DNA of 54,411 nucleotides, counting the filler, from Sluysia triapertura (Eukaryota): the NCBI GenBank assembly GCA_046118255.1. It is 4 parts of 4 records of this genome, joined end to end, with 100 filler letters (N's around TTAATTAATTAA, not from the genome) between each part and the next. Parts side by side here need not be neighbours in the genome. Positions count along the whole stretch, not along the records: positions 1 to 16,977 come from JBJNIA010194379.1; 3 more parts are not named here. One strand, 5' to 3'. The translations under genes and the position numbers were made by a program. Below the pieces are notes generated by a model. The model worked only from the letters and a program-made list of their open reading frames with translations, had not been told where the DNA came from and made no database searches. This document shows, one piece after another, positions 1-43,642 of this stretch. Each line of letters opens with the position of its first letter. Within the stretch, counting starts at the first letter, position 1.

Positions 1-80
1 GAATGATATACCATAAGCGCTTTTGAGTACTTTCGCGGTAGATATGAGCGCCATATAAATTAATATATTATTATTATGAT
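1..80 (+). mobile_element. Possible L2/CR1-type LINE or SINE 3' tail
   Basis: AAGCGCTTTTGAG...GAGCGCCATATAAAT (GCGCT/AGCGC stem) followed by short ATT repeats, resembling L2-type 3' ends. Confidence 0.4.
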
Positions 81-454
81 TGTATTAAAAAATAAACTTT
101 ATCAAAAACATTAAAAGAATTATCAACGTCCCATCATTGACATTAAAACAAATATATTAAAAGTATAAAATACTAATGTATAGACGAGTTTTAGTATGGA
201 ACGTGCAAATAAGAAAATCTAAATAAATTCTTTTAATAATTTTTAAAAGTTTTTCATCATTACATATATATAGTCGTTATAACTATAATTTTTTGCACAG
301 ATAAAAATACCTAACAGTGAAATTGAAATATATTGCCGATCTTAGATCCTCGTAAGCATATATAACGATCTTAAAATATTCATAAGATATTTCTACCTTC
401 TTGATCACAAAATGTTTTATACAATTTAACTAAAATCTCCTTAAAATTTTCTGC

Positions 455-542
455 TGATACCGAAAAACCGGTATTTTGAAGCTGCGAATACCAGTATTAC
501 GAAATCGAAAAAAGGTCCGATATCTCGGTATTGGAAACCTTA
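455..542. mobile_element. hAT-Ac-like transposon end
   Basis: Clustered ATACCG/CGGTAT subterminal motifs ending in CGGTATTGGAAACCTTA (reverse complement TAAGGTTTCCAATACCG); no partner end found. Confidence 0.4.
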
Positions 543-676
543 CACTAAAGTTATTGTTATGTTTTTTTACTATTTCATGATTAAATAGATATGGACTCTA
601 GATTTTTGATTTTCAATTGAAAAATCATTCAGATAGATAATAGATTCGAAATCTTTTTAAAATATATTTTCAGTTA

Positions 677-1781
677 TTAATCTATTGGCATATCAATATC
701 AATATAATTCCAAATTTTTATAGTCCAGTCATCTGAACCTGAAACTAAATACTTTCCATTAGATATCCACGATACAGTATTTATATCTTCTTCATGTGCA
801 TTATGTTTTTGCACCAATAGTTTTACACTAATATTAGTATTCAAAATGCGATTAAAAACATTTTCATCATCTAATTCTTCGACATCAAAAACACATATAG
901 AATTATCGCGACCACAAGAAGCTAATACATTTTTGTTACTAGACCACGAAATATCCCATATAGTATAAGTGTGATAACCACCTAAAGTAGCAATACATAT
1001 CCACTCAGTAAAACATTTATCTTAAAAAATAAAGCCATAATAATAAGTGTGTTACTTGTTACCCATAATTTAATTGTAGCATCATCACTACAAGAAGCCA
1101 ACAAATTTCCTGTATAATTGAAACTTACATTTCTCACTATATGATCATGAGCTTTAAAAGTGGCACTTAAAATCCACTCATCAATATCTTGTTTAATAAC
1201 ACCTATTGAATTATCGAATCCACATGATACTAAAATCTTAAAAAATTATATAACAATCACAACAAACATTTCGAAGTGGATGCCAAGTAACACTTTTCAC
1301 ATCTTCAAAATGAACATCATTTGGTGTTTCCAGTATTTCAAATTCTTCATTTGTATCATAAATATTTACGGATGTGTCCCTACCGCAACTAGCCAAATAA
1401 TCACCTTTACTAGACCAAGCCACACTTTTAACTTCCGATTTATGATGCTCTAATAATTCCATTTCAATTAATTCTGATTCTGTTAATTTAAAAATAACAA
1501 TTTGCCCATCAAAACTACACGTGGCTATAGAACAATCATCAGGCGACCAACTTAAACATCTAATAGAACCATGGTGACTAAATGTACTAATCATATATGG
1601 ACACCAAGTAGATAAATGAACATCTATAAATAATTAATAAAAATAATATACCATAATTCCAAATCCTTAGTATTTTATCTTCTCCTCCAGAAGCAATAAA
1701 TTTTCCGCTGTGGCTACATCTTACGCACCATATTCGACCAGAATGATCAGTTAGCGTATCAAAAATCTTAAGGTTATTCAT
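677..1781 (-). CDS. CIAO1: Cytosolic iron-sulfur assembly WD40 protein CIAO1/Cia1; 4 exons (1781-1652, 1623-1268, 1236-1056, 1020-677), 336 aa
   Basis: Manual splicing over GT-AG introns of 28, 31 and 35 nt gives a continuous 1011-nt ORF ending in TAA. It has WD repeats with Cia1-typical motifs: HSGRIW..ASGGEDKILRIW, SIRCLSWSP, HKSEVKSVAWS..LASCGRD, HFEDVKSVTWHP, LASCSDDATIKLW, WICIATLGGYH, AHEEDINTVSW..SGSDDWTIKIW. Confidence 0.93.
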
Positions 1782-3959
1782 AATGTAATTTTAAAATTTA
1801 ACATAGGAAAAAATTAATTAAAAAATTAAGATTATGCTTTTTGTACGTCTAATGCTAAAATAAGTATAAATATTAAATAAAGGACCAAATTATGTAGTAT
1901 AATTATTTTTATATTTTAAAGGTCAAAATAATTTTAATGGGCAACTTGAATTATAATGCGAAATTTTTAGGTAAGTACTAAAACGATAAATATATTAAAA
2001 CAAATGGTAATTAAATATATAAACATTTTTTGCTTCCACTAAAACTAAATATAAGCAATATATTGTTTCCTTTACTTTGTCCATTTGCTAATATTTTTAT
2101 ATCTTATGTATTTATGTACATACAAAGATAACATAAATATATTTATATTATAAATAAAAAATGCGAATTATAAACTATTTGAAATTAAATATTACAAGTT
2201 TTGGTAAATTTAAAGTTGCATAAAATATCTTTGATATGTTACTAAGTTACTATTTAGAATTTCTCATAAATTAGAACGAATTTTAAATAAGTCAAAATCT
2301 TCTACTTTAAAGGTTTTTAAATAAATTTGTGTAGAATTAATTAATTATGTATTTAATTGTTAAATTATGTAAAATTATTTGTATTGTCTAATATAATTAG
2401 ATTTATTGCAATATGATGTTTTCGTTAAGGGTTAAAATTACAATTTAAAAAATGTTATAAAGTAATTAACATATGAATTTCTTAAAGTTGATATTGGAGA
2501 GGAAAAAGTTAATAAAGAAGGATTTAAAACATTTTAAACAGAATGCAATATTTCAACGAGCCTTTATGAAGTTAAAAAATATTTAGGAAAACATTACGTC
2601 TCCGAATCTGAATACTTTTTATCAAGGGTGAAAATGTAAAAATAAAAACTTATGAATAAAGAAAAATGATTAAAACATTTGCTTAATTGATGTGTAATAA
2701 AAATGCATGTAGAGGCGGTTTATTACTTTAAAATTAATTTGTAATGAATAGTTTTGTTGTTTACTTGAACTTTTAATTAGACATTGCATTTTAACTTATT
2801 CTTTATTAATGCTTGATAATTCTTACTCCCTTTAAAGGTATTTGTAAACAAATAGCTATTTGTAAGCAAATATGTTCCACAGTATGGAAGATATAACAAG
2901 AAAATAATGTAGTGTACTGTTGCAGTAAGAATGATGAAGACGAAAACAACAACCAAAGACCCATATAAGGTGTTAGGATCTTGCGGAAGCTTCAGATGGA
3001 CTTGGAAAACCTCTAAAGGGTGCATGTTAATCATTTTAACATGTGAACTTGTTTACAGTGGTATTATGTTATAATACTGTTTATTTATTGTTATTTAAAA
3101 TTCTTAAATTCTTATTCTTTATTTGCAAATTATCTGAGGAGTCGGTCCACCTAATATATACGCTTTATATCTCTTTTGGAGACATATTATTAGAATTTTA
3201 TAACTTTATAAAATCTTAAGCCAAAGAAAAAATACAACTTAATTAGTTACTCAAAACATAATGATAAAATCGATTAATATTAATTTTTAGTTTTAGGATT
3301 TTACAAAATTACCCAACCTTCTTTAACGTGTTGGTAATAAGATTTTGATTAGGATTTTAGTATTCTCACTTAGGATGAATACATCAAAAACTTAATCAAT
3401 AAAAAACTACTTAGTCAACATGGAAAAATTGAATTAACTTCTTTGATTGATGAACAGGAACTTTGCTAAAACCTTTATTAAAAAATTTACTCTGTAATTT
3501 GCTCTAAAAAATTTTTGTTTTTAATATTTTCCTTAATTCTATTTATACCAATTTTCTCTTATCGGCATTCATTTAAAACATTAATTTGACTAAACAAACT
3601 TAATTATTTTAAACAAATCCTTTATTAATTAATTAATATTATTTCTAAATATTTTAATTTGATTGTTATTTCTATATTCCTAAACTTTTTTTTATCATTT
3701 TTTATATTTTTTAGTATTTTTATTAATTTGATTTTTTAATTATAATATATATTTTTTGATATTAGATAAAATAAAATTATATTTTTAATATTAGATATAA
3801 TAAAATTAATAATATTAAAATTTACGCTATTTACACAAATAAAATAAATAAAACATAAATGCAGAATAAAAATATTCTTAACATTTACTTTCCCTCACGG
3901 GAAAATTCGTCCTCGAATGTTACATTATTATAGAAAATCACAATTATTATGAGATATCA

Positions 3960-5417
3960 TCGTAACACTATTATTAGTCCACCGAGTCGTCCTCATTGAG
4001 TAAATAGTCGTAGCGGAATAGGTAGTGAGAATTATTGTTACTTCGAAATTTCTTTGGATATAACAGCCGCAACTCGGGTGCTTCTCGATGATTCATTGAT
4101 GCAGTTGTTAAATTCGGAGTAATCGCTGGCAATTTGGTGAGCGGTGGATTAGTTGATGATGATATTTTAGTAGTTGTGATGATGATTATTTCAACGGTTT
4201 TACCAAATGTGGAATAGAAGTTAATGAAGAGATAGAAAAATAAGACAAAGAAGTAGAAGAAGGGGAAGAAGGGGAAGAAGGGGAAGAAGGGGAAGAAGGG
4301 GAAGAAGGGGAAGAAGGGGAAGAAGGGGAAGAAGAGGATGCAAGTTTTTGCTTTTTTAGAGGAGTAAGTTTGGAATCAGAAGCAGGGGCAGTAGAATGAG
4401 GTTTCTTGAAAAGAACAGGTACAGGATTATTACAGCGAGAAATGAACTGCAAATCTCGCTCCCTTATATAGTCAAGCTGGGTCACCAATTGTGAGGTCAA
4501 CACTGGGCTAACAGGTAAAATTAGTCGCAATGTTTGACGTGTTCTAATAAAAGGATCGTCAGTGGCAAAAGGAACCAAATTAAGGTTCTACAAATTAATA
4601 ATCCCTCTCAGCAATCCAAATGGAATATTCAAGGCCTCAATAAGAAATATGCGCAAAATTCCTATCGATTGGGAGCGGACATCGTGATGTCCTTAGCCAA
4701 CCTAAGATCGACGTCCGGATCGTTTGGATGTTACGCCTAAAATTCTGGATACGACACCGAGGTTTGATACGAGCCTCAGTATGAAAATGACGACTGTACG
4801 GAGTACAGGTCACACAAATTAACTGAGTGTTATTTAGGAGATCCGTGGCGTATTGAAAAGCTACAAGCACAAGTCTATCCTCATCATACGCAGAAAGAGG
4901 CGGAACGTGCGTGTGAAGAGCCGCCTTCCCATCGACTTACATTGTCGAAATCCTTTGCGAATGGAAAGAAAGAGGGAGCAAAAGAGGGTTGGACGGCAGA
5001 ACAAAAAGAAAATCAAGATGAGTTGGGAATTCAAGGGCTTCTCCCATAACTTTACAAGCCTTAGTCAAGTTTGAGAGATGAAGAGTCGAGTGATTCTCTA
5101 AATACAATAATAATGGGATTCCCTCGACCTCTAGAGTGATCTTACCTGCGCCCCGCTCAGATACTACATACATCGTATTAAAGTAGTCAGGCGCATTGGT
5201 TAGCCCCTGCAAAGAAATAAAGGGCAGCTCCGATGATAGAGCAAAGATGTCGGTTGCCACGTTATCAGTTAATTCGGTCTTTAGCTTACAGTCCGTGGTA
5301 AATGAGTTAGGAAAGAATTTAGGGGTATGATTTTCGACACAGAACCTATCGAGAGAAGAATATAAGATTTTGATCTAGCTGATTGTTCTGGCCTGGGGTG
5401 TTTTGACTCGATGTGTG
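3960..5417 (-). pseudogene. Unknown-domain protein, copy 2 (frameshifted, in-frame stops), with Ser/Pro-rich C-terminal tail
   Basis: ORF pieces 4937-5260, 4637-4870 and 4186-4578 are collinear homologues of 5603-6737 (PQAR..SLDRFC..P.FFPNSF..DC.LK.ELT; EALE[FY]PT; EAR[IV]KPRCRI.NF.RNIQ; TDD.FIR.RQTL; LDY[IV]RERD). Confidence 0.75.
4258..4333. repeat. (GAAGGGGAA)x8 pure-purine tandem repeat, encoding (SSP)n on the minus strand
   Basis: Read directly: eight GGGG runs at 9-nt spacing. Confidence 0.95.
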
Positions 5418-5517
5418 CTGGATTACGAAAATAAAATTTAAAATTTACTGTGAGATTTTCGCTTAGGAGGTTGGGGCTTGGTGTAGATGTTGATGATATC
5501 TGCGCTGATGAGGTTGT

Positions 5518-6737
5518 CTATTGTTGGTCATTACTTGTGGTAGCAGAAGATGATGGTAACGGCTCTGGTGATTGTTTTTTTATGGCATTGTGGTTTAATT
5601 GTTCATTCAGAAGGTAAAGATTTAATAGAGGATTTTTTAGAAGAAAAAAGAAAAGGCGGAAGATCATTGCAACGCTGTATAAAAGTAGTATCCCTCTCTC
5701 TAACATAGTCTAAAACAGTTACTAACTCTGACGCCAATTGTTTACAAGAGAATTTTAGGCATACGGGATAGACAAGTTTCAAAGTTTGTCGTGCCCGTAT
5801 AAAAATATCGTCAGTGGAATAAGAAATGAGGTTGTGATTGGACAAGTTCATCACACCTCGCAACCATCCAAACGGGATATCAAATGCCTCTATTATAAAA
5901 CGAGGGTGAAGGGAAACTAAAATTTTATTATTCAGGAACCCAAAAAGATATAGCCGGACATCGTCTATGTCCTTGGCCTCCCTAAGCTCAATATGAGAAA
6001 TATCCTGAATATTTCTCAAAAAATTTTTGATTCTACACCGGGGTTTAACCCTTGCCTCCAAATGAAATTGGCGATTATAGGGTGTGCAGGCTATCCCCGT
6101 GAGGTGAGGCTTATCAAAGAAATCGAAGGCATATTGATATGCCACAAAACAAGACGATCTTCGCCTTCAGCAGAATGGGTGGAACATGGGTGAATGATGT
6201 CCCACTGTTCCAACGATTCATGTTCGAGGAGTCCCCGGAAAAAGGGTTTGAAAGTGAGGAAGGAAAAGGAGCTGGAGGCAAAACGAAAAGGAGGGCAATT
6301 GAAGTTGGATATTCCAGAGCTTCAATGTTGATATCGCAATGAACATTTAAGGCTGAAAAAAGAATAGTGGATGGGCCCTCTAAACGCAAAAGCAATGGGG
6401 AATTTTTAACAGAAAGGATGACTTTTACGACGCCGCGTGCTATGGCTAAGTAAATGGTGTCGAAATTTTCGTGTATTTCTGACAAACCCTTTAAAGAGAT
6501 TTTCAGATTAGCTGGGATTAAGAGGAAAACGTTGGTTGCTAAATTTTGGGTTAATTCACTTTTCAACCTACAATCCATTGAAAAGGAATTAGGAAAAAAT
6601 GTGGGAGCGTTCTTATCTGCGCAAAAACGATCAAGGGAAATGTAAAATGATTTTAACTGTGAGGTGATGCGTGCCTGTGGAAGTTGAGATTGGGGTTGTT
6701 GTTGTTTTTTTTGAGATTGAGTAGTTCTTGATATTAA
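5518..6737 (-). pseudogene. Unknown-domain protein, copy 1 (~400 aa when frameshifts near 6140-6175 are bridged)
   Basis: ORFs 6114-6770 and 5603-6145 join through frameshifts (THVPP/..EDRLV/VAYQYA) where copy 2 reads THVPPLSAYDEDRLVLVAFQYA. Visibly more GC-rich than the flanks. Confidence 0.75.
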
Positions 6738-6879
6738 CTGAAGATTAGGAATAAAAAGATAAGAGAACAAAATAAGAACAAATCATACAAAAAACAAAAT
6801 AAAAAAAAGAAAAATGGCAAAAAACAAGATTTTTTGTTTTTCCGTAAACGGTATTATAATAAATGATAATATTTATAGA

Positions 6880-7359
6880 ATTATTATTTCTTTTTAAGAA
6901 AAGGGTTATTACATAGGTTAGCATTTTGCTTATAGAATTTTCGTAATTGACGTCTTCTACAATTTCGTTTTTTAGACTTAGTTAAACCTGGTGGATAATC
7001 AGGTTTTGGCACCTGAAATCCATTATACAAAATACGAACTTTTTTTAATAGAGGTCGAGAAATGTCAATACTAGAATCTTCCTGTAACTCGTTTGTAGTT
7101 ACTATAGAAGGTGGACCAGGTTCGACGCAATCTACAGTGAATTCATACGATCTTCTAAACTTTTTCTATAATAAATATCACATTCTTTAACTAAAGTGCG
7201 GCACATAGGGCAAGAAGGGAAAGGGGTTGGAGCAGATTCAAACAGAAAATAGAGACAACGAAAGTGGAAACGGTGTTTACAAGGAGTAGTTAAGGAATAA
7301 TATTTTCTAATTTGTCGACGACAAATAGCACAAATTGTAAAACGTAATTGGGTAAACAT
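6880..7359 (-). pseudogene. RING-H2 (C3H2C3) zinc-finger protein, probable E3 ligase; frameshifted after the RING
   Basis: CAIC..CKHRFHFRC..CPMC ligand pattern; ATG at 7359. A second frame continues past 7132 (FTVDCVEPGPPSIVTTNELQEDSS...). The 3' end is approximate. Confidence 0.7.
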
Positions 7360-7567
7360 GATCGACTGAAAGAGGGAATTTAAATACAGTAACAATTTTA
7401 TAAAAATACTTCATTTTCAAAATTAAACTATAGAGTACTATTAATAAAATATTATAGAATGAACATAGATTAAATAGGAAGTAGTAATACATTAAGTATC
7501 GATAAAATATATTATACAATAATCTAACTAAATAAAGAACAAAACAAGGTAAAATACGAGCTATTCA

Positions 7568-7636
7568 ACATCACCCTCTCGCGACCGATAATGGAAAGTT
7601 AACAGCCATCGCATATGGTCAGCGAGCAGGAGATGT
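7568..7636 (-). other. GC-rich ~69-nt imperfect RNA hairpin
   Basis: Minus strand pairs ACATC/GATGT, TCCT/AGGG, CTCGC/GCGAG, GACC/GGTC, ATA/TAT and ATGG/CCAT around an 11-nt loop. Confidence 0.55.
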
Positions 7637-7749
7637 CTCAACTCATACTTTAGATGAATATTTCATGCTTTAATAAAGAGATGATTTCTATGCCTAATGA
7701 ACAGATAAAACTTATGAATTTGACAAGCAATGTGTATTACTGATGTAGT

Positions 7750-10034
7750 TAAAAGGAAACACGTTGTAACATAATAAAAGAATATAGATTGATAGTCTTA
7801 ATATGATGTCCTCTGTGGAATTTCTACATTAGTAATTTTGAAATAGTAAACTTAAACTTTTATTTAACTTAGTAGTATGCGTTAGATTTTTAATATTCTG
7901 TACTGTACTTTTAGTGCTTGCAGTAGTAGTGGTAGTAATAATAGTTGGTGCTGAAGTAGTGACAATATCCTGTTCTCTTAATATTGGTACCATTAGATCA
8001 CATACTCTATATTCTGGCTAAAATCCAAGTGTGTCTTGGATTTCATTGTATCGCAAAATCAAAACCTCAATAAATTTAAGATTAGGTTCTGGTGCAAAAA
8101 ATAGATTCATGCTAATGTTCGGAAGAATTAATGCATAGTGTTGTTCTTTATCAAACATTTCATCGAAATCTTTCTTAGGTGGATCCTTTTTATCTATTTC
8201 GTGACCAATTATTATGGCATGTTCTATTAATGGATTTGTTATTCGTACAAAATTATTACTTCTTCTATACAGTGACATTGGAAATTTAATAGTTGCCGAC
8301 AAGTGACTAAAAATATAAGGTTTTTGTTCTAATTTTGTAGTTATGTAATGATATAACTTTCGAATTTTGATTTAATTCAAAATCAAATTCTAATTCTAGA
8401 GTAAGGTTAAATAACTGATTTTCTACAAGTTCATTACAAATCATTACTCGGTATTTTGTGTATTTACTAATGTCTGATCCGTATTTACACCATTTAGCCA
8501 AGCAACAACTCAAGGAGATATTAGTGATTTTTGCAATGTTGCTTTGTATTTTTGCATATATGGTTCGTTGAAGCGCTCTAAATGTAATTCGTGGTCTCAA
8601 TATTGATTTTACATTAAGTATGCACGTCAAATTTATATAGGCTTGTCATTTGCCAACCACCATACATTAATGGTTAATAATTACCTATTGCATATTCATA
8701 GACATGAGATGGTGCTATTTGAAATCCTGGTGGCTCAAGATTATTACTATGTGGAATAGTATATCGATCGTCATCATCATTATTCGGAGGTAAACATGGA
8801 TATCTACATTTGTTTGAAACAAACATGATGATTACCAGTATAACTATTGATAGAGCAATGATAAATAATGCAGCTAAAATTAATATTAGCAATGCTGGAT
8901 CATTTCTTAACATTTCTGACAATGACAGATATTTTCGAGTTCCTTTTAACGCAAATGTAACTGTTTTAATTTATCTGGTGCTACATATATCCTTCATTAG
9001 CTAATAAATCGGTACATATAGCAATAGGATTTACCAAATTATTAATATAATATTCCTTCACGTTCCAAGAACTAAAATTGAGTCGCGCCTGTTTAAGGCA
9101 CATAAATCTCACTTGAATGTCATTCTCCAATATTTTAACTCTTACTTCGGTATCATAATTTCGAAATTCGAGATATTCGGTTTTGTAGATTCGGACATCA
9201 TACATATTACATTGTATGGTGGTGATTATCATGAATAATATTAAAGGTATTAAATTTTTATTGACTGCGAATATACACGCCTTTCTACTGAAATCAATTA
9301 TATGTAGTATAATCCAAATTGCATATATTACTATGAGAATTACAGATATTGGAATCAGTTTATATATTAATGTAACGACACTGGATAACATATCGTTCGA
9401 TGGGTTATTATTACTTTTAAACTCAGATACACAATTATTCATAAATTTATTTGTAATATTTTGTACCCAACTTTGTACCTTTCTAGCATTTCGTTTATTA
9501 TCTAGCGCGAATGCTATTATCATTGGTCTATATTCGTATTGTAAGCAACGCGGGATTTTATTTATGTGATATGGTTTGCCTATCAATAATGGTTCTAGAT
9601 AAATGCAAATAGTTTAATAATATAATCAAACTTTTTTAATACTACAATGATTTATTAAATACATGAAAAATATACAAATTGTGATAGTAATAAACTTTAT
9701 AATAATTATAATGATTTTACCGACTTAATCCGAATGCTTAGCCGTATAAAAATTGTATTTTGGTTAAGATTTCAACCTAGCCAGTTACGGTTTAGGATCA
9801 ATAAAAAGATTTTGATTGTGTATTTTAAAGAACCTTATATTAAAATTAGGGTTGTATATGAAACTTAAAATAGATATTTACTTCTGCATGGAAAAATATT
9901 GTAATCCAAGGATCTGCTGAAGAATTATCGATACCAAAAATTTCCAGATTGATTGTGTTCACTTTTAATTCCATTTTTTTGTGTGTTTTGTAATTCCAAA
10001 TTAATATGTTTATACTGTTAATTTTATATAACAA
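7750..10034 (-). pseudogene. Decayed run of membrane/glycoprotein-like ORFs (ectodomain-TM-signal modules, Thr-rich stalk)
   Basis: Abutting ORFs 9846-10034, 8981-9586, 8674-8922, 8307-8630 and 8018-8302. Hydrophobic segments LIPISVILIVIYAIWIILHII, LIPLILFMIITTIQC and LLILILAALFIIALSIVILVIIMFV; VTTSAPTIITTTTTAST follows the stop at 8018. Confidence 0.55.
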
Positions 10035-11225
10035 TCGCCTTTTTTGAAAAATGATTAAATTTAAATCTATTAATTCACTTCACAATTATTGAATTTATAT
10101 TTTTATTATTGTTTATTATTTTAATTTCTTAGAATTGAAATAATATTTATAATAAAAAATTATACATTTTTTAAATATTCACACTAAATAATAAAAATAG
10201 ACAAAATAGTGTTAAATCATAAATAAAATAATGTTATTAATATAAATCAAAATCATTAATGTAAAATGATCAAATGTGACTAAATGTAAAATAAAATAAT
10301 TAGAGGATTGGAGTAATCCAATATTAATTGAAATTATGTAAAACATTAAAAATATATCTAATTTTAATCTTAGAAGTTAAATATAATTTCACTGTCAAAT
10401 TTAAATAATATTTTTGTACTAATTTTTTTTGTATATCGTTTGCTTCTGACATTTTATATCACCTTTTATTCGGATTAAATGTTTTGCAAACTAAACTTTT
10501 CTTGTAATCACAATATTCTTTGTATGGTACTGCATAAATATAAAATCTTAATTGGTTACCACACTAATTAAAAATAGATTTTATGGTGTTAATGCTTTTC
10601 TTAGACACAGAAATATCAGGTAATTAAATTCCACTGCAAACGTACCGTGCTTATAAACTTATCTCACATGAAAAATATCCCTTTTCAAAAATCTTGGCAG
10701 TTAACTTCTGAAACAATAAATACGCAGGTTATGTATGATAATTTTATAAACATTTATGTGATTAATATTTTACATTTAATTATTTTTATTCTCTACGAAA
10801 ATAATCATTAATCAGTGATCATTTTTATTAAATTATTCCTAAATTGTTCTTATATATATACAAAAATTACTTTCAAAATGGTTTCCGTTTATAGATAATT
10901 TAAAATAATTTATTTATTATTTTTCTTTATCCTAATTCCTAAAAATAATTTGATTTCCTAAAAATAATTTCTAAAAATAGATTTCTTTTAAAAAATAAAA
11001 TTACCTTTGCTTATTTTAAATTAAAATAGATTTAAACCAAATTAAAACAAAATAAAATTAGAAATTTGCTTATTTTTTGATTTTTTAATTAATTTTCTAT
11101 TTTTTAGTTATTTTCATTCTTATATTTGATTTTTTTATTTAAATTCCTATTTTTTATTTTCGATTTTATTTAATTTTCTATTTATTTATAATATATGATA
11201 ATAGATTTTTTAAACACAATTACGT

Positions 11226-11507
11226 TTATAGATTCTTTACACTTTTTACATACTTTACAAAAGCGATAGAACAGGGGAATTCTTGTGCCTCCGCAACAAC
11301 TTTGTAGGATTTACATGGTAGAAAATGCATAGAACCACTGCGATAGGGTGCATTAGCAAATTCATTTTGGATAGTTCTAAAACTAGAAGGCGTTAGACTA
11401 AAGACACGAGTAGCAATATCTAAATCTAGGTCATTTTAAAGTCTATTAGGGGTGGAAAGTGAGGGTCAAAATAAAGCAGGGTTTATTTCAGTGTTGCAGA
11501 ATTAGCG
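11226..11507 (-). pseudogene. Unknown-domain protein, short third copy
   Basis: Manual translation FCNTEINPALF*PSLS..NDLDLDIATRVFSLTP..KVVAEAQEFPCSIAFV matches copies 1 and 2 (FC..P.FFPNSF..ELT.N[LV]AT.[VI]F.L..EALE[YF]PTSIAL). Not in the supplied ORF track. Confidence 0.55.
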
Positions 11508-14051
11508 CTGAGTTAAGTTAAGGTTAAGTAGTATCACTATTTTCCTTACTAAATGCACTTATGTTTTTAACTCTTAAGTCACAAGTCCTAAGGTATGGCT
11601 AAAAATCAATTGTGTTATGTCAAAGTCTTGCGTAATATCCATATTTGTGTAATTAATATTCTAATACTTGGTAGATGAAATAATTTACTACTAATTTTCT
11701 ACTAATAATTTACTAATAGATGAAATAGTTTCTACTAATAGGAAATCTTAAAAGAAATTAATATTTATTTTTTATGAACTAAAAATTCTCCAAAATACAA
11801 AGGTTCATTTTGTATACAATTCGATACAAAACAACAAAAATTTATGTAACAAGATAATAAAAATTTAAATAGATTATTTTTAAAAGTAATCTTTTATTTT
11901 CTTAGTATTTTAAGTAAATGATTTTACTGAGCTATCTTAATTAAATGATAGCTATCAAAATTAACGAAATTATGGAAGCACTGTTAAATATTGCAGAATT
12001 TATAGAAAATAAAACTAATGATACGAATAGATAAATGTCCAAAAAATTTCTCGTAAATAGTGTGATACTGACTCAGATTTTTCTAACAAAAAACTATGTT
12101 AGCTTAAATAAATATTATATTTAAATATCTTTAACTGTATGGAACTTTTTTAAGTATCTAAAAACTTTTAAGTGTGAGTGCTGATCTAAAAGCTTTAACT
12201 TTTATACTATGACAAAAATTAAATTATTTTAACAATTCAAACAATTAAATTTTAATAATTAAATATAAATTTTTTACATAAATTATAATATGAATTTTTT
12301 ACGTTTTCGAAATGTTTATTATTTTCGAAATTAATTTCATGCGAAAATAAAATTTATAATCACAATTACAACTTAATAATTATAATTATAATAATTTTCT
12401 TATGTTTAATTTTAATTAATCTTAAATTATATCAATATTTATTGTAAAATATTACATGTCTAATAAACGTTATGCTTGTTATACATCTGAGATGGTTTTG
12501 ATATATTTTGTCTCAATTGCATTCGTTAATGTGTTTTGTGATGAATACTGTGTAACTAATTAACAACAATACCGAATATCAATCTCTATTCATTATTGTT
12601 TAAGCCATTGTTTTAAGAACTTACAAAACCCTTGAAATCAAAATTCAAGTTTTATCCAATGATCAAGCATGATTCAATAATAGCCAATCCGTGACAAGTT
12701 AGGATAATTGCATTCAGACTGCGAAAATCTGTTGGAAAACAAAAATGAATAAATAAATAAGATGCAATTGTTATACCACAAATTCCACTTGTTAATGATG
12801 TATTGTAATGTATTTATTAACATTTAATATATTGTGAAATAATGATAGATTATCTTTTATCAGTGCGATCATTTCTTTGTGAAATTTTCAAACAATTGAT
12901 TAATGTCATTGTATTAGGAGGGCTAAAGATAGGGTTGTTTCAATGTAATGATAGATCTGTTACTAAAATTGTATTTTTCTTTGATCACATACGAATTTTG
13001 TGAATGAATGTCTACGTTCTTTGCAAGACCATTATTGTTATGGAATATAGGATTTCAAATTAATTTATATTCGCCAGTTTTTCATAGAAGAACAGCCACT
13101 TTTGAGGAATTTGAAAAATGTGGTGATTAAGAGGAGTTTTTAGAAGAAAAATTTTATAGTTTTGTCATCCAATTGTCTAGTGTGCAGATATTTTTATTCT
13201 TCAAGACTTCTGAGACTTGATTAAGTTTTTCAATAGCTTTAAAATCAAACATGTAGGACTGGTCGAAGTATTTTTTATTAATTGAATAGCAGAATATCAT
13301 TCCTTTCTAGAAACACAACGTTGTTAAAGTCATTATTTGAACTCCAGTATTTTCTTTAAGATTTTTGCTTTCAAATGCAAATTCTTCTAAAATTACACCA
13401 TATTCAGTAAAACCTAAATTCATAAATTCGTATACGGACATTACTTGAATTTTCGCCATCACTTTTGTGTACAAGGTCAGCATTTTGAATCAAAAAAATC
13501 CTTGTTTCTTCTGATATCATTGATAGTTCTTTTTGAAAGTTCTTTTTTAAATTTACCTAAGAAAACCTCTGCTACTCTGTTATCTGAACCTACAGGACAA
13601 GGTTCAATGTATTCCAATTTTTTCAACAATTAACTTTACACACTTTCAATTTACCATAAATAATGTCCAATGAAAAATGTTTCATAAACAATCCAATATA
13701 AAAACAACGTTATTATGTCAAAAATAGAAATACATCATTAAAATATTTTTTAAAAATGAGGCGGTTAACAGAACTGGCAGCTAGCAAGAGTTTTCTATTA
13801 TAATTTTTAAACTTCCCAAAATTATAACAGAAGTAGTCTATTTGTTTAAAATTTGTCTTATTTCATTAATGATTGAAAATTAATAATAAACTATGATTAT
13901 TCTTGATAATTCTGAATCTTATATCAAATTTTGTTTTACTTTAAATTAACTTCTATTGACAGAAATTCGAATTTTTTGAAAGATAAATTTTGTCTCCGCC
14001 GTTCTTCAGTTATTTTGATATTGAAATTTTAATTTACTTTACTATTTTTAG

Positions 14052-14279
14052 GGTGTCATGGCTCAGTTGAGTTCTCGATGTGGTTATCGGCCGCAGAAAT
14101 TCGACGAGATGAAGAAACACATTCAATTTCACTTCGAGGACGAATTCTTCATGGAGTTGTTTCGAAATTTCGAAGATCAAGATAGTGCCAATGGAAACAA
14201 GCAGGATGTAATTGTATGTCGTGAAAACCTAGTGGCGGGATACCAAGTATGTGTGGCACCTGTTCCTACGTGTTCTCAA
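14052..14279 (+). other. Possible coding exon of unknown gene
   Basis: Elevated GC, open frame (MAQLSSRCGYRPQKF...), preceded by TTTTTAG and followed by GTTAGT; no family recognised. Confidence 0.25.
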
Positions 14280-15217
14280 GTTAGTGAGCTAAGTAGATTT
14301 TATTCTATTTTATTAAAACTCGACTCAGTTAAAGCAATTAAATTATTTTATCTACCACGCTATTAAGGGCTTATTTTTGCGTTTCTAGCAGATCAATATA
14401 TGACTTCTCGGATAATGGAAATTCCTGAGATCCCTTCCTCTTTAAGATCCTTAATTGTTCTATGATTGTAGATTTCCTTTATTCTTGAATCTGTATCAGT
14501 TCTTGAGAAGGATGCAAGCATCTAACTGAATGGAATTTTCTTGGAAAATGTAATATCCTTGCTTTCTGGAAATCTTTTGTTCTCGGATGAGAAAAGAGCA
14601 TTATCTTTTAAAAGTTGAATTCGAAGTCTCTTTGTTGGTACGTATGTATGAATTTTGCATATAAACTTATTTTTATGAATTAATAATAATAATAGTAATA
14701 ATAATAATAATAATAAACCAATAATAATAACAGTAATATTAGTTATAATAATGATAATAATAATAAATCAATAATACTAATAATAGTAATCATATTGTGA
14801 TGGCCAACCTACTAGCACAAAATTTTAGTACATCACAATACTCTACATATTATATTTTTACAACATCTAAACACTCATTACATCAAAAATCATCCAAATT
14901 ATATTTAAAATATTAAAAATATTAGTAAAATAAATGGAATTTCTGTAACACTTTAAGCTTCATTAATTTCCTATCATACTTCTTTTTCATATTTATTTAT
15001 TCTATTATAACATACAACTTTTTTTAACAAATATTTGTCAGCATAACTTATTAAGCTTGCGGTTCTTTTAAAAAATTTTAATGAATAATTAAAAAGAATT
15101 AAGTTTTAAAGAAATATATAAAGAATATTAATTCATTATTAAATAGATAAGAAGAGAAAGACATCTATGCGTTTTATTTTATTTTATTATTATCGTTATT
15201 TTTGTCATTGTTAACAC

Positions 15218-15235
15218 TATTATTATTATTATTAA

Positions 15236-15271
<36 letters not shown>

Positions 15272-15300
15272 CATTATTACTAATTATTATTATCATTATT
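15218..15300. repeat. (TTA)n microsatellite, imperfect
   Basis: Read directly. Confidence 0.9.
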
Positions 15301-16977
15301 ATTTTCATTATTTTCTACATAATTTCAAATTTTAATCATCTGAGCTGTCAAGTATATAATAGTTCATCATCATTAAAATTAATTTATTAGTTCATGTAAA
15401 ATTTGCATGGTGACAACTAACTGCTCTTGCTGGTTATAAAAATTGGCTCACAACTTATAATTGGCTCAATACAAACATTCTCAATAAAGGCATTCATAAT
15501 ATATTCTGTCAAAAAACAATATAAGATTCATATTTACGTAATTTTAGTGCAATACAATTTATATTATTCAAAATAATCACAATCTAAAGTTTTAAAATAG
15601 TTTGAACTGTAAATGCTACTACATTCAGAAGATTTAGAGCTGCTACACGAAATCTTGTATGTTTATTTTCCAAATGTATTTTTTTGTCAAATTGATCTTA
15701 TCACTAATGCTAATTTAAAATTATTAGATTTAAAATAACATAAAATTAGTTTTAAGCAAAATCCTTATTTGGCTACTTGTGATATCGAATATTTGATCAA
15801 TTATTACTCAAACTAATTCTATATTTCCCGTTACGAAATAAAGTATTTGTTCTACAAACAGTATTGTCTCACTACGAAACAGAAAAGACAAATCTTTAAC
15901 AAATGTAATCAGTGACGAATACAATTATCAAATTAGTTATAGAGTTATGTATTATACCAAAGGTGTACTCGATCTTCTTTTGGCCAGTTAAGGAATATAT
16001 AAAGCAAGGTCAAGTTTTATGTACATATGTTTTAACGTTTTTATAGAAATATTCTATTTCAATTATTTCAATTCTTATTTTAATATGAAAACAATTGATA
16101 TTAAAAGATTCACTTCAGTTAATACGTATTTTAATATATTTAAATAAAGAGGTTTTTTGTTCAAATTCAGAATTTTCTTTGATAAAATATTTTATATCAA
16201 GACACTAAAGATAAAAATAAATGTATTTTTACGTATTATATTTTAATAAAGAATTATTGAATTGAGATTACTGTTAAATTAAATTGAAATATTATAAAAA
16301 AATAAAATTATTATTTTTAAATAGAATTATTATTCTTATTTAAAAATTATATATTAAAACAAATAAATATTTAACATTTAAAACTAACTAAATATTATTA
16401 TTTCATTATTTGTTTATAGATACTATTTGTTTATGGTTAATACATAACACAAAAAACTATAAAAGCATTAAAATTTTGTAAAATAGTCCCAAATAATAAA
16501 CAAAAACTATAGTTTATTTTTGTTGTATTGGTTATATTTGGAAGAGAAAATTAAAAAGAAAAGAAAAATTTTGTTAAACATTTTGATAATTTTTGGAAAA
16601 TAAAATAATACTTGAAATTAATATTCTGCATTCTTCGAATCACAATAATACTCCATTTATTCAATAAATTGTAAAAGATTAAGAAAAATTTAATTGCTGT
16701 AAGCATCTAGAATTAAGAATAAATATAAACATCTACTTCCAATCTTATTTTTCTTTAAGCTGCAAATCTATGTGCTGGCCCTTCAGTGAGTAAGTCTAAT
16801 TTAAAGCAATATCCATTCTTAATCACACTAATCTCTACAAGATGAACTAAAGTTCATGTACGTAATAATATGTTATATACTTATGTAATATTTTTATTTT
16901 CTTAATGTAATAAAGATTAAAGAACTTAATATATATTACCAAACAACCACATACAATGACAAAGGATAAAAAATTTC

Positions 16978-17077
16978 NNNNNNNNNNNNNNNNNNNNNNN
17001 NNNNNNNNNNNNNNNNNNNNNTTAATTAATTAANNNNNNNNNNNNNNNNNNNNNNNNNNNNNNNNNNNNNNNNNNNN
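16978..17077. other. Artificial contig linker
   Basis: 44 N + TTAATTAATTAA (stop in all six frames) + 44 N. Confidence 0.97.
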
Positions 17078-20399: not shown

Positions 20400-21830
20400 T
20401 CTGGATTAAAACGATGGATTTTCAAATTTTGTTGAACATGGCGTTAAACTTTTGAAGTTTCGGTATCAATTTCAACATTAATTATACCAGGCAAATTCTG
20501 AAAAGTTTTCTCAAATACTATTTTGAAATCAATTCTTAGAATACTTATTAGTAAAATCCTTGATGATTGTAACATATTATATTGTCAAAAATAACAAGGC
20601 TTCCACTTGCAGCTATCGTTATCATATTGTTGGAATTGCCCAACTGTGGATATGGAGACGAAGCAAAACATACAAAATCATAAAGTAAAGGAATAACTGA
20701 TACAAGTGATAGATTGAACCGTTGAAGTAAGAATCATAAAAATTAAAACATCTGCAATAATGGTAACAGCTAAAATATGCCTTGGAGTTCCAAGGACCTA
20801 TCTAAGGTGTTGAGGCCTTGTGAAGACTTGAGATAGACTTGGAAGACCATTAAAATCATTATGATATCTTTCAATTGACAGCCTTAATGTACATTTAATA
20901 TTCTTGAAACCTTGATAAGCATCTAAGATGTTATAGTAATCTTATACAGTGTTTATTATCTCTAAAATAGTTGAAAAATAAAATCATTGTTATTGGTATT
21001 AAGAATAAATCTAATATAGTAATAATTAACATGAAGAAGGAGAAAAGGAATCAGAAGGGTGAAGGTGAATTCCTTATAAACTAGTAAGTAACTTTAGAAC
21101 TTCAATAAAACCTTTAAACATGAAATAAGATTAAGTCTAAAAATGGATTAATCCATTAAGAAAAATTTTGTTTTTGTGAATAACTTTTGAATGCCGAATG
21201 CTATGTTAAATTTGAAACTGTGTATGTATTTGTTTTGAAAAGACCTTTTGATGAATGTATGGTTTGACTGAGTTCATGCAAGGAAAGCCTGAATATTGAA
21301 CAAAGTCAAATTTTAATTAATTTTTAATTATGGAATGTTGAATTTTTTATACTTAGAGTGATATAAATGTAATGAATTGAATATGAGATGATTGCTATGA
21401 AAGAATAGAATCTAGAAGTGAGTTTGAAATGTTTGTAGAGTGGTTTATTTGAGAAGAAGACGCTTAAAACATTTTTCATTCGATAATTGGGTGTGAAAAA
21501 TCGAAAATCAATTAAATTCTAAAAAGTGAAATTAAATTCATTATTTTTATGTGTGTTAATAATATTGTTGATTGTTATTTTAATATGAGAATTAATTTAA
21601 GTAAAAATAGATTGAGTAGAGTAAAAGAAAGTGATGGTTGATAATAAATCAAATTTTTGTGTTTTGTACCTAATGATGTTTGAGAGAACTTACCTTATAA
21701 TTGTCAAAGTTGTTATTCTCGGTTCATTTATCAAATAAGTTTTGATGTTTTGTGTGAGAAAGTGTTTGATTGTGAAACCTAAGATTGATTGGATGATGAG
21801 AGAGTATAAAATGAAAAACATAAAACTTTT
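20400..21830 (-). mobile_element. Decayed repeat carrying signal-peptide ORF remnants
   Basis: 21230-21760 aligns by eye with 29350-29800, and 20625-20700 with 29828-29895. Minus-strand starts MFFILYSLIIQSILG and MILYVLLRLHIHSWAIPT. Confidence 0.5.
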
Positions 21831-24730: not shown

Positions 24731-25091
24731 GAAATTTATATTTTATTTCAATATTTTTTTTGTTTTATGTGATAATTATTCTAAAATTTTAAAATTGATT
24801 CATTTTATATTTTAATTAATTTTTTTCACTATTATTCTATTATTCTTCTTTTAAATAAATAGTAATTTAAAAAACAAATAAATGTAAAAAGAATTTTTAT
24901 ATATTTTCTGTTTTTATTTTATTTTTAAGATAATATTATTTACACGTTTAGTGTAAATATTGACTATCAAAGTGAATGGATCATTTTTAAAATTAAATTT
25001 AACCAATCACATTAAAGAACCAATTATATTATTAGAGTGTATAGTTTTTTAATACCCTAGTAATCTATATTAAAATAAAGAAAAAATTATC

Positions 25092-25431
25092 ATGTTAGAC
25101 AGTACAAAAATGAATATATTAACAAATAATACTATTATTGTACATAATGTATTACAAGAATTTTATTATAAACCTTTATCTACATTTCAATTGTCATACG
25201 TTGTTATATGTGGTTTAATAATAATACTGTCATTGTTGGGTAATGGTTTGGTGATTTTGTTGACAATAAAATACAAACGAATGAGAATGTCGAAAAATAT
25301 TTGTTTACTAAACCTGTCTATTGCTGATCTAGGTGTTACATGTATTTGTATGCCAAGTGAGTTATGTAGATCTATATATACATTTTGGATTCTTGGCAGT
25401 GTATTATGTAAGGTATCTTATTATGCTCAAG
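25092..25431 (+). CDS. Rhodopsin-family (class A) neuropeptide-type GPCR, first coding exon (N-terminus to start of TM3)
   Basis: TM1 LSLLGNGLVI, TM2 LLNLSIADLGVTCICMP, ECL1 WILGSVLCK; phase-1 donor G|GTTAGA at 25432. Downstream exons were not found in this contig. Confidence 0.85.
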
Positions 25432-25443
25432 GTTAGAATTTCA

Positions 25444-28195: not shown

Positions 28196-29189
28196 TTAGA
28201 GTATCGCGATTTAATTAAACTAGATTGCTGTGTTGTATCATACGTTGAAATATGCTGCTACAAATTAACTTTATACGGCCAGTCCCTGGTGTTTATGAGT
28301 ATTTTATTGACAATATTTGCTGTTGTAGTACTGTGGATCTTCTGCATCCTGTATGGTTTTGCGTGTGCCTGCTGTACGTGTACATCGTGTGCTCTGTCTT
28401 GTTTGTGCTGCTGTTGCAATTAATGTCTGTGTTGAAATGCAGTTTATTTATTATCTGGAATCTGTATTTAATGAGTGTATAAAATAATAACTTTTGTATT
28501 TTGATTTTTAATTGTTCCTATTAATGGGATCCAGACGATTTTCCAAAATATTTCCATATTGCTGTTTTTTGGACTTCAAATAAGTTCCACACCGAGTTGT
28601 TGCCAAGTAATATAAGATTTTATACGCAAGATATTAAATTCGACCCTCCCCGTAAAAAAGCAGCAAAAAAGAACAGTAAGCATGTTCAAAAAGGTATACA
28701 TAAAATAATAACCAAGCAGCAAATTCATGGATTAGAAAACATACATAAATTTTCGGCGGGAGCAAATTTAGTCATTTATCGACCTGAGAGCCCCTAGTAC
28801 GTATATTTAGATCTAGAATGAGCTAAAAGAAAATTATACCGCTAAATAGATTTAACAATTATTATACGAAAAGTAAAAACATGAATTGAGAATAAATGAT
28901 TTCAAATTAAAATTTGACACACCTTTGGTAGAAATAGTGTTAAAATACTCTTCATCACTTAAACTTTAAGTAAACAATGTAAGGATTGCGTTTCTTTGAT
29001 CTTATACGATTCCAAAACCTTTTGAATGCTTGATTGGGTATTTTGTGCTTTTTTAGCTAATTTTCCTTGAATGGCTAAAAATGGCCAATCAACAAACTGC
29101 AAAAATAAAGTACTGTCAATGTAGTGGTCAAACTAGTCAAAACATTACAGATCCCTATTTGAGTCCCAGTATGAAGCCTAATATAACGT

Positions 29190-29933
29190 GAAAACATCTA
29201 GAACCCTCGGAGTGCCTTATAAAGTAGCAAACAAAAAGAAAGTCAAAAATTAGATTGATTAATTAAAAGCTTAACTTAATTAAAGAAAAGTACGTTTTTA
29301 TGAATAATGTTTGAATGTTGAATGTTTTATCAAAGTTAGTTTTGTTATATCGGTGTTTGTTTTGAAAAGATATATTTATGAAGATATGGTTTAATCGAAA
29401 AATTCTTAGTTCTGGAATACTGAATTTTTCATATTTAAAATGATGAAAAAATAATGAATTGAAGGAAGAGAATCTAGAAATGCATCTGAAATGTTATTAG
29501 AATGATCAATTTGAGAATAAGAACTTTAAAAATTTTCCATTAGAAAATTGAGTGTGAAATAGTATAAAAATTAATTTAATTCATTATTTTTATGTATGAC
29601 TGATAATACTAATGATTGTTATTTTAATGTGAGAGGTAATTTATATTAAAGTAGATCGAGTAGAGTAGAAGAAAATAATGGTTGATTATTAATCAAATTT
29701 TTAAATTCCTCAAAAAATAAAGTATGACAGACTGTACCACGTAATTGGCAAAGCAGTTATTGTCGGTCTGATTCTCAAAAGAAGTTTGGATCAAGTGTTA
29801 TTATTATTTAATAATTTTGAAGTCAAATGTTGGGATTGCCCAACTTTGGATTAGGAGACGAGTAGAAGACATATAGAATTATAAATAAAGGGAAAAATTG
29901 ATGAGAAGTAGCAGATGAAGTATTATAAACATT
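29190..29933 (-). mobile_element. Decayed repeat, same family as 20400-21830 and 34360-34650
   Basis: GCTACTTTATAAGGCACTCCGAGGGTTCTAGATGTTTTCAC (-) versus GCTACTTTATAAGGTACTCAGGAGGCTCTAGATGTTTTCAC at ~34454(+); the remainder aligns with 21230-21760. Confidence 0.55.
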
Positions 29934-30033
29934 NNNNNNNNNNNNNNNNNNNNNNNNNNNNNNNNNNNNNNNNNNNNTTAATTAATTAANNNNNNNNNNN
30001 NNNNNNNNNNNNNNNNNNNNNNNNNNNNNNNNN
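29934..30033. other. Artificial contig linker
   Basis: 44 N + TTAATTAATTAA + 44 N. Confidence 0.97.
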
Positions 30034-32408: not shown

Positions 32409-34359
32409 TATTAAAAGCTTTGTCAGAATTTAATCATTTATTACAAATCCTTTTCATAGAATTTACGAAAAATATTCCTTAAATAATTATTTAATAAAAA
32501 TATTTGAATTTACTGTCATTTTTTAAAAAGCACCTCTAGAACTTAACTTAACTTCATTGAGCATTTAGGCAAGCATTGAGTTATATTTTTAATCTTTTTA
32601 ATTGCAAAAATCCAACGGCTAGCCCTAACTGGTAAGCCTAGTACGTTGGTAGACTCACGTTAAAATTCTATTTTAGTCTATAAGTCTCTTATCTTTTAAA
32701 ATCACCTGCAATTTAAACAATAAATTTTAAAATTTTTTCAATTTAAACTTTTTAATTCTATTTTCATTTTATTAAAATTTTTGATTTTAAATTTTATTTT
32801 TTGGATTCCATATTTTCTTTTTTACCATATTTTTCTTTTTTAATTTTGATATAATAATAATTAATAATTAAATATTATATGAGAATTTATATAAATTTAT
32901 ATTCAAAAAATATTTTACAAATTTTACATTCTAACAGTTACATTCTGACAGAATTAATATTGAAAAACAAGAACACTACATACTACAAAAAATCAACAAA
33001 CGCATTCACTGTGTGTCAACAAATACACACAAACCAAAAATAGTATCAACATCAACATTATTAATGTTTCAGTACAGACGTTGATAACACCCAATAGCAT
33101 TCTCACTAAAACATTAAGATTGCGATCCATTATTGGAATTTCGCGTTTTTGGTTACCATCCGTAACTCCGGCTAAAAGCAATGACCCAGCACAATTAATC
33201 TAAAATTCATCAAGAAACAGTTATTTCGAGTATCCGTAATTTGAATATTAATAATTTATCCTTTCTATTAGGAAAGATAAAATATTACTCAAAATCTTTA
33301 ATTGAATGTTTAGTTTAGGCTAAACATAATTTGATTTTTAAAATTTTTAAAATCAATTCTCGTAACAATCCTTTATTTATTATATTATATTCTGTCAAAT
33401 AAAATATTGTTGTACATTGAAAGATTCTCGATTGAATATTGGTATTTGTAGATAATAAATATAAAGGAAAGTCTAGTCTTTTCTTTTAATTAGTGTGAAG
33501 TTTGTATAAATTTAGAGTCAAATTAAAGAAAATAGTTATACGCGAATCTTTTAAAAGATTTCAAATAGATAATTATTTTGCTTAGACTAAATTAACTTTA
33601 ATAATTTAAGTTAACAGTTTATATCTTATAGTCAACAAAAGACCGAAGAGCATTAATAGTTACTTATCAAGAAGAGACAATTGAATAAAAGTCGTTGCTA
33701 TTAATTAAAGGTACTATCAAGTATAAAATAAATTTACTTATCTAGAAGTTATTTTAAAACGCTTTATAAAAGTATACACCAATAAAAGTAATTAGATTCT
33801 GGGAATTAAAAGAGATCTGAATAAAAGTAATTATATAATACAATATTAATTTGTTAGCATTTGTGAACTAATTAAAACTTAAACTACCCCTATAAATTAA
33901 GCGAATCGACATTAAAAGCTGGTGGAATTTTTTCCTATAAGTTAAGTATAACTTTAAAAACGTGAACATTGAATAAAGTTTTATCGATTAAGACATAAAC
34001 GAGATAATTGTAGGGGTTAGATAATCACTTATTGAGGAAAATTAAGATTAATTAAAAGAAGTTAATTTGGTTAATAACAAGGTTAAGTTTAATTTGTGCT
34101 AATAAATATAAGTTACGAGTAGAACGTTTTGATGTTAATTTTATAAGTTAGGTTTAAACCGTATATCGTAGGCGGACTTTGATTATTAATTCCAATTTGA
34201 AAAAGTATAAGAAAAACATTAGCATTTGTTCAATATGGAGGATTTCTTCGCACGAACTCGGTCAGACCTTATTTTCATTGGATGATCTCTCTTTAAAACA
34301 CATACATTCACAGTTACAATTTTAACATAGCATTCCTTATTCAAAAGAAAACATAATTT

Positions 34360-34650
34360 TTCTTAAGTTAATTAAGATTTTAATCAATTAATTAATTATT
34401 TTAACATATTTTATTCTAAGCTTAAAGGTTTTATTATGGTTATAAAGTTGTTAGCTACTTTATAAGGTACTCAGGAGGCTCTAGATGTTTTCACCTTCAT
34501 CACTCTGTTTCCTTTTTATACTTTTTTATTTTAATTATCAATGTATCATATTTATCTTTAATATTATTAACCATGATTTTAATTTTTGAACATTTTACAA
34601 AGTTACTCGAAGGTCTTAAAAGTCTTCATGAGTCTTAATACCCTAAGTTG
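34360..34650. repeat. Dispersed repeat modules shared with 29190-29290 and 20790-20850
   Basis: Collinear near-identical blocks seen by eye. Confidence 0.5.
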
Positions 34651-39515: not shown

Positions 39516-39568
<53 letters not shown>

Positions 39569-41200: not shown

Positions 41201-41204
41201 TAAT

Positions 41205-43542: not shown

Positions 43543-43642
43543 NNNNNNNNNNNNNNNNNNNNNNNNNNNNNNNNNNNNNNNNNNNNTTAATTAATTAANN
43601 NNNNNNNNNNNNNNNNNNNNNNNNNNNNNNNNNNNNNNNNNN
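43543..43642. other. Artificial contig linker
   Basis: 44 N + TTAATTAATTAA + 44 N. Confidence 0.97.

Follow-up and report, generated by a model that had tools for sequence, protein, structure and literature searches.

We analysed a window of 54,411 nucleotides (the whole stretch of DNA presented here) from the Sluysia triapertura genome assembly GCA_046118255.1, composed of four assembly pieces, and describe a block of minus-strand open reading frames (ORFs) on its first piece (JBJNIA010194379.1, positions 1-16977). The block is real, extends over about 6 kb (about 3884-9850) instead of forming one 7.6-kb unit, and belongs to a high-copy repeat family, of which it is a single, broken copy. 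It is the dead remnant of a high-copy element that has not been described before and carries unusual cargo. Probably, a giant Ty3/gypsy element with env, working like the planarian element Burro, is the source of the block, which would be its 5'-truncated accessory region; the long terminal repeat (LTR) class, the link to pol and the functions of all genes are what we infer.

A broken copy of a high-copy repeat family

The original prediction took 3870-11507 for one inserted, virus-like cassette of decayed ORFs beside the host gene CIAO1. The dense co-orientation of the frames was borne out in 3884-9850, where 12 stop-free frames of at least 90 codons cover 77% of the minus strand, vs. three such frames and 16% on the plus strand; coverage by such frames in 200 local shuffles averaged 10%, with a maximum of 30%. 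No frame of at least 90 codons is found in 9851-11510. For depth analysis, contigs of X1, the one sequencing run with the region (0.61 of the sampled words), were placed on 4400-13400 at 80% likeness. Altogether 3,753 contigs fit this region, 335 at 99+% identity, 568 at 95-99%, 1207 at 90-95% and 1643 at <90%. Summed depth was 544-21,169 in 18 of 18 bins over 4400-9817 and 19-899 in 11 bins over 9818-13128, and four exact-match contigs beyond the block, including 9847-10826 and 11194-11776, have a depth of 9-18. The summed depth of the block, which is not a copy count, amounts to 30-fold to >1,000-fold that of these exact-match flank contigs. High depth stops at ~9810-9850, and a single inserted unit reaching to 11507 could not be upheld. 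Given how strongly depth differs and how many contigs are divergent, single-copy host genes carrying assembly indels are excluded.

The features on which the argument rests are listed below in the direction in which the block is read.

11226-11510, minus: third, older, shortened paralog of the tandem protein, outside the block, with three stops and ~30-45 amino acids (aa) missing (contig 11194-11776, depth 17.7, no differences)
9810-9850, no strand: approximate 5' break of the high-copy part (depth falls from 4154 in 9517-9817 to 356 in 9818-10118; exact-match contig depth 8.9 from 9847)
8674-9613, minus: likely membrane-protein run with ectodomain, transmembrane (TM) segment, signal-like segment, small ectodomain, TM segment and Pro/Tyr tail (from hydropathy; resembles 51828-51373)
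7721-8645, minus: likely glycoprotein with ~7 N-x-S/T sequons (by eye), a Thr-rich stalk and a C-terminal hydrophobic segment
7550-7652, minus: long imperfect hairpin between genes, of pre-miRNA-like shape, stronger on the coding strand
6884-7410, minus: RING-H2 (C3H2C3) protein, predicted E3 ubiquitin ligase (Pfam zf-RING_2 PF13639, E 2.1e-8)
5603-6782, minus: tandem copy A, ~380 aa, its N-part a predicted cupin-like double-stranded beta-helix; frame changes near 6150-6190
4186-5374, minus: tandem copy B with a Ser/Pro-rich tail; stops at 4939 and 4590, frame changes near 4650-4700
3884-3896, minus: candidate polypurine tract, directly before TG, at the GC change point
3025-3883, minus: candidate 3' LTR, very AT-rich, starting TGTTAA at 3883; the putative matching TTAACA end could be 3025 or 2358

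Decay by stops and frameshifts was confirmed: each gene of the block is broken, and the frames carry in-frame stops as well as frame changes. Other X1 copies read differently from this one at some breaks, and those breaks are therefore private to this copy or sub-family. From the 40 best-supported differences listed out of 1,257, 29 were used, after 10 outside frames and one on a break had been dropped. Within the tested frames (n=26), 20 differences were non-synonymous and six synonymous, close to the 77% of non-synonymous sites expected without selection. This fits neutral decay of this copy.

Gene content of the block

From 5' to 3' on the minus strand, the block holds the membrane-protein run, the likely glycoprotein, the hairpin, the RING-H2 protein, copy A and copy B. 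Hydropathy placed hydrophobic segments at 9355, 9280 and 8883 in the run, which has a frame change near 8970-9000, and at 7807 in the likely glycoprotein, in agreement with the multi-TM run described earlier; the ORFs likely encode single-pass membrane proteins. In word-seeded protein search, 0 of 99 candidates passed for the membrane ORF. The glycoprotein-like ORF has stops at 8020 and 7831 and a frame change near 8310-8370, and its only Pfam match (Baculo_p24, E 0.0035) lies below the cut-off. The RING-H2 domain at 7132-7410, which the original reading had named, is intact: its Pfam match is above the cut-off, the translation shows each of the eight C3H2C3 ligands, and it matches PDB RINGs at E 7e-4 to 8e-3. 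A likely basic tail follows in another frame, with the frame change near 7160.

No family of transposase, reverse transcriptase (RT), polymerase or capsid was found above cut-off in the block frames scanned, in line with what had been noticed before. Nor did Pfam reveal BIR, BCL2, MATH or ankyrin domains in these frames; in Burro such domains are mostly polyprotein-borne, and the polyprotein is missing here. PHROGs gave matches only at E>=0.009, and no match was confirmed among metagenome contigs and viral contigs (IMG/VR).

The hairpin folds at -42.3 kcal/mol on the minus strand (z -5.36; 0 of 200 shuffles), vs. z -2.95 on the plus strand (2 of 200 shuffles), and ranks second of 188 windows in the fold scan. 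It is a stable, long hairpin on the coding strand, as in a microRNA precursor, and its presence had been correctly predicted. The Rfam scan assigned it to no family and gave three matches, all at chance level. Another low-energy fold (z -5.3; 15 shuffles) lies in very AT-rich DNA at 12300-12399 on the minus strand.

The two tandem long domain copies of the original prediction are clearly related, with 45% identity over 161 aa (E 8e-37) and 58-60% in later pieces. Over 258 aligned codons, the proportions of non-synonymous and synonymous differences (pN and pS) are 0.29 and 0.81 (the latter saturated), and mismatches fall at 38, 23 and 63% of first, second and third codon positions. Copies A and B diverged under purifying selection. 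Taken together with the neutral-like differences of this copy, this means that the active family long kept both paralogs and that this copy has decayed since. The short domain copy at 11226-11510 proved a true paralog: 15 residues are invariant in the three-row alignment of A, B and this copy, although single pairwise E-values are weak (0.019-0.16). The exact-match contig that contains it has a depth of 17.7, in low-depth DNA, and the short copy is therefore a separate older relic, not a part of the unit, for which 7.6 kb is too long.

We found no relative of copy B at E<=0.001 among 1.84e9 protein representatives, 0 of 336 candidates passed for the C-part of copy A in word-seeded protein search, and other PDB sequence matches occurred only at E>=0.06. 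An AlphaFold2 model of the N-part, built on the three-row alignment, shows a beta-rich core with a confidence score (pLDDT) of ~70 at residues 70-120. In Foldseek, cupins came first in PDB (best E 6e-4), and plant-virus replicases and cupins were on top in BFVD (best E 5e-4); we take these replicases to carry AlkB domains. VIA gave Z 8.9 with a root mean square deviation of 2.8 over 92 aligned residues to XRE-cupin, tied with the CENP-C cupin and with spore-appendage and viral turret jelly rolls. The N-part is predicted to hold a cupin-like fold. In copy A, its strands are predicted to follow the order and register of cupin proteins (XRE-cupin regulators, the CENP-C cupin, AlkB domains); unlike these, the tandem protein gives no sequence match, does not keep the metal-ligand positions in B and the third copy, and continues into a 170-aa C-part. 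With the positions placed by what we take to be the cupin motif (HxD/HxH..H), His stands at both in copy A alone and at neither in B nor in the third copy (by eye, from the alignment). The conserved metal ligands of the Cupin/2OG-Fe(II) (2-oxoglutarate) dioxygenase class are not kept across the family, which argues for non-catalytic binding modules. A PCNA-like N-part, considered by eye, had no support in the fold searches. No dUTPase- or TLP20-like folds were among the fold matches listed.

The nature of the element

Every block ORF points towards a 13-nt purine tract followed by TGTTAA at 3896-3878, and the maximum-likelihood GC break (3882-3892) coincides with this site; GC is 0.27-0.42 in the block vs. 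~0.2 around it. Under our first definition, it is the sole purine tract plus TGT among 1,950 TGT sites in the window. Under two of four further definitions it is again the sole site, and the other two return zero sites. The searches around 3200-3900 and 11500-12400 that had been proposed for LTRs, terminal inverted repeats (TIRs) and a target-site duplication gave no paired LTR, TIR or duplication. Among the 25 longest inverted repeats in 2000-14000 there are only low-complexity pairs of <=79%, and self-BLAST returned none. The AT-rich stretch 10800-11300 was tried as a homolog of 3400-3900 or 32500-33100, and neither comparison was clear (133 vs. a shuffle maximum of 157, and 121 vs. 118).

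The host genome holds env-before-protease elements, one of which is present on another assembly piece of the window.

51373-54411, minus: putatively related element with class III-type env, retropepsin, second retropepsin-like remnant and membrane ORFs

In this remnant, Pfam detects env (PF24664, E 2.3e-15 and 3.7e-16) and retropepsin (PF13975, E 5.1e-11), and the second protease-like ORF scores E 0.0055 and 0.12. A second protease behind pol is unusual. This ORF and the membrane ORFs lie within ~0.4 kb behind the first retropepsin; there is no room for RT, RNase H and integrase between the two proteases, and the remnant is therefore likely internally deleted. Its env piece gave 0 of 190 passing candidates in word-seeded protein search.

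The block ORF 9613-8984 aligns to 51828-51373 behind this env-protease remnant with a score of 77 (pairwise E 2e-5, one of 56 comparisons made), and the two share the order of a Cys-containing motif, a TM segment, a signal-like segment and the start of the next ectodomain. Among 70 tiles of the remaining window, 51828-51373 is the best, as scores outside two overlapping tiles are <=58. In three schemes of 1,000 targeted shuffles with microsatellites masked, the score of 77 was reached by 0, 2 and 0 shuffles. These results are suggestive of a relationship between the block membrane ORF and the ORF behind the remnant.

On this basis, the block would belong to a giant Ty3/gypsy element with env, in which it would fill the space from pol to the 3' LTR; a 5' truncation at ~9850 likely removed the gag-env-pol half from this copy. 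Through an RNA intermediate, reverse transcription would copy the accessory genes together with the rest of the element. The purine tract ahead of the 3' LTR (3883) would prime plus-strand synthesis, and the genes would be read in sense orientation with the element. The membrane proteins may act on the particle or cell surface, the RING-H2 ligase may ubiquitinate host factors for removal of host proteins, the two long-diverged cupin-like proteins may serve as non-catalytic binding modules, and the hairpin may be a small-RNA precursor or a structural signal. The original prediction had proposed a giant LTR retroelement or an unclassified endogenous virus. The purine tract plus TG and the ORF likeness to the env-protease remnant indirectly speak for the LTR retroelement, though with a shorter unit, a separate short copy and no pol linked to this copy; for the virus there were only sub-threshold hints.

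Few animals are known sources of giant LTR elements with virus-like cargo, and most accessory ORFs of these elements lack annotation. In the available text of PMC6431247, Burro is >30 kb long, is present in thousands of copies, has an env of mononegavirus-type homology in frame ahead of protease, and carries RING, BIR, ankyrin, BCL2, MATH, SUMO-like and dUTPase-like cargo mostly inside its polyprotein; accessory ORFs lie beside the polyprotein, and decaying fragments occur in D. japonica. Burro/GYPSM1 of dugesiid planarians shares with the block the high copy number, RING/ubiquitin-related cargo, accessory ORFs and decaying fragments, and with the remnant at 51.4-54.4 kb the env before protease and a mononegavirus-type fusion protein. 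Apart from RING, none of the cargo listed for Burro was found in the block frames, and this copy has no linked pol or LTR pair; conversely, the available description of Burro holds no cupin-like pair, membrane-protein run or hairpin (PMC6431247). By analogy, the block may work like the Burro accessory region, and we do not class it as Burro. In the portions available, PMC11410931 and PMC13238120 only mention Burro.

GAG-ENV-POL errantiviruses with HSV/gB-type env are reported from Platyhelminthes, Nematoda and Bryozoa, with two S. mediterranea entries at 45 and 215 copies; they share env before pol with the remnant at 51.4-54.4 kb, whereas the accessible part of that report deals with the three core ORFs and does not mention a 3' block of several accessory genes (PMC13524379). 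LTR elements of bdelloid rotifers are similar in having family-specific extra ORF3s 3' of pol, including small TM proteins of unknown source, but they carry one extra ORF (TM, GDSL or DEDDy) vs. five or six here, and RING is absent from the main text as far as available (PMC5408684). Literature searches aimed at accessory ORFs or cupin cargo of giant LTR elements yielded no paper; Grohme 2018, possibly describing Burro accessory ORFs, lies outside that coverage.

Several observations weigh against a giant Ty3/gypsy element. RT, RNase H, integrase, gag and env were found neither in nor next to this copy in the frames and flanks scanned, and no second LTR, primer-binding site or target-site duplication was found for it. 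The purine-tract definitions were set after the site had been seen. Summed contig depth is not copy number, X1 is possibly the window's own source sample, and the depth data run from 4400 rightward. In window-wide shuffles, the score of 77 of the ORF likeness was reached in 2 of 60 in each of three schemes (P ~0.03); the likeness comes largely from a 21-39-aa motif and hydrophobic spacing, stands at E 0.039 among 19 queries by tblastn, and is unexceptional without masking, where the reversed query scores 75. DNA alignment of the block ORF with 51828-51373 gave no support, and the other six block or flank queries had no convincing match in the remnant, which lies 41 kb from the block with three assembly joins between and therefore gives no physical link. 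Confidence in the fold model is low (mean pLDDT 51, against ~70 in the core), and Z 8.9 is a middling score for a common fold; for the C-part, the model is unusable (pLDDT 39) and no match at E<=0.001 was found. As to a planarian host, the CIAO1 introns of 28-35 nt are below the peak of 45-85 nt seen for S. mediterranea intron lengths in the available text of PMC13594981.

A fragment of an endogenous large DNA virus or a virus-transposon composite, nudivirus/baculovirus-like or Teratorn-like and amplified by a DNA transposase, would account for the virus-like cargo (RING, glycoproteins, tandem paralogs, no introns). It would also fit the baculovirus hints (Baculo_p24, E 0.0035; TLP20, E 1; ODV-E18, E 0.06-0.07), the single jelly-roll turret proteins, which score level with cupins in the fold search (Z 8.0-8.5), and the start of another repeat near 13.1 kb. 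However, all these hints are below cut-off, no core gene (polymerase, pif, lef, capsid) was found in this fragment, which may not extend to such genes, IMG/VR gave no confirmed match, and the 13-kb repeat is ~3 kb of low-depth DNA away and lacks a Pfam match; all ORFs lie on one strand towards the purine tract plus TG, at very high depth, and we regard such an origin as unlikely. High copy number and one-strand ORFs suit any mobile element, including a large DNA transposon (Polinton/Maverick, Helitron, or Zisupton/KDZ-type with a dioxygenase-like passenger) or a Penelope-type giant retroelement, and the predicted beta-helix fold has AlkB-like neighbours among viral replicases. Cargo of this kind nevertheless seems rather unlikely: no TIR was found, the frames scanned contain no polymerase, integrase, ATPase, capsid or Rep/helicase family, there is no hammerhead or other Rfam family, and the metal-ligand His is seen, by eye, in copy A alone. 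For Polinton/Maverick in particular, no Pfam family of polymerase B, integrase, ATPase or capsid was found in the frames scanned of this fragment, and no long TIRs were found.

RING-H2 and cupin folds are common in animals, and this copy has no mobility gene, which would suit an amplified host gene cluster or segmental duplication turned into pseudogenes, with some breaks being assembly errors. We hold this to be highly improbable, and it is largely refuted by X1 contig depth. The 6 kb of the block are free of introns, as the original prediction had stated, beside a host gene with three micro-introns (CIAO1, 677-1781), GC is 0.27-0.42 vs. ~0.2, and thousands of contigs are divergent. In addition, no relative was found among the 1.84e9 protein representatives, and in-frame stops occur besides frame changes.

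Within the preferred reading of a giant Ty3/gypsy element, a further proposal is a tentative one: a lineage of giant env-bearing retroelements, possibly outside dugesiid planarians, may carry behind pol a large-virus-like accessory genome (several membrane glycoproteins, an E3 ligase, a duplicated, database-unknown cupin-fold family and a microRNA precursor) that was selected while spreading to hundreds or thousands of copies. If the gag-env-pol link is true, the E3 ligase, surface proteins, new cupin-like family and hairpin become candidates for host manipulation, and the cargo range of Ty3/gypsy elements is extended towards complex viruses. If it is false, the block still represents a family of high-copy elements that has not been described before, and with it a new protein family.

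Host DNA, neighbouring gene and other repeats

The window is AT-rich animal DNA (GC ~0.2-0.3), flatworm-like by our impression. Its pieces meet at three 100-base joins, N runs around the TTAATTAATTAA linker (16978-17077, 29934-30033, 43543-43642), and distances across them are therefore no evidence of linkage. Two features border the block on its 3' side.

2902-3017, minus: fragment of another repeat, also at 20704-20854 (72-75% DNA identity); flank or part of the candidate LTR
677-1781, minus: CIAO1, host gene, neighbour outside the element (best natural match in PDB CIAO1, E 3e-31)

CIAO1 has three introns of 28, 31 and 35 nt, and cutting them out (1651-1624, 1267-1237 and 1055-1021) leaves an open frame of 336 aa. 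These introns are short for a large, repeat-rich genome. The alignment of 2902-3017 with 20704-20854 scores 66 vs. a maximum of 54 in 100 shuffles. A repeat family of ~70% identity comprises 20628-21746, 29185-29902, 34225-34597 and 2902-3017, and compared with the copy at 20 kb, the one at 29 kb shows circular permutation, as would be seen with a tandem unit or tandem LTRs. The repeat at 20.6-21.7 kb was rejected as a solo LTR of the block's element, as only 2902-3017 aligns.

Beyond the 5' break, the ORF 9846-10079 was considered as a decayed protease and dropped, its score being reached by 94 and 142 of 500 shuffles. At 12850-13700 on the minus strand lies a further repeat of high depth (2,366 in 13129-13400); it has no Pfam match and by eye looks like what we take to be a decayed transposase end. 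At 14052-14366 on the plus strand, a 104-aa frame shows a weak zinc-finger match (zf-C2HE, E 0.0024). An intron-less minus-strand frame of ~360 aa with an acidic N-part (42460-43590) is cut by an assembly join and has no Pfam match, and 40792-41704 contains further frames of unknown kind. By eye, 46956-47400 (minus) is presumably a Tc1/IS630-like DDE transposase remnant, 38821-40016 (minus) a DCAF12-like WD40 host gene, and 25074-25436 (plus) an exon of a rhodopsin-type G protein-coupled receptor.

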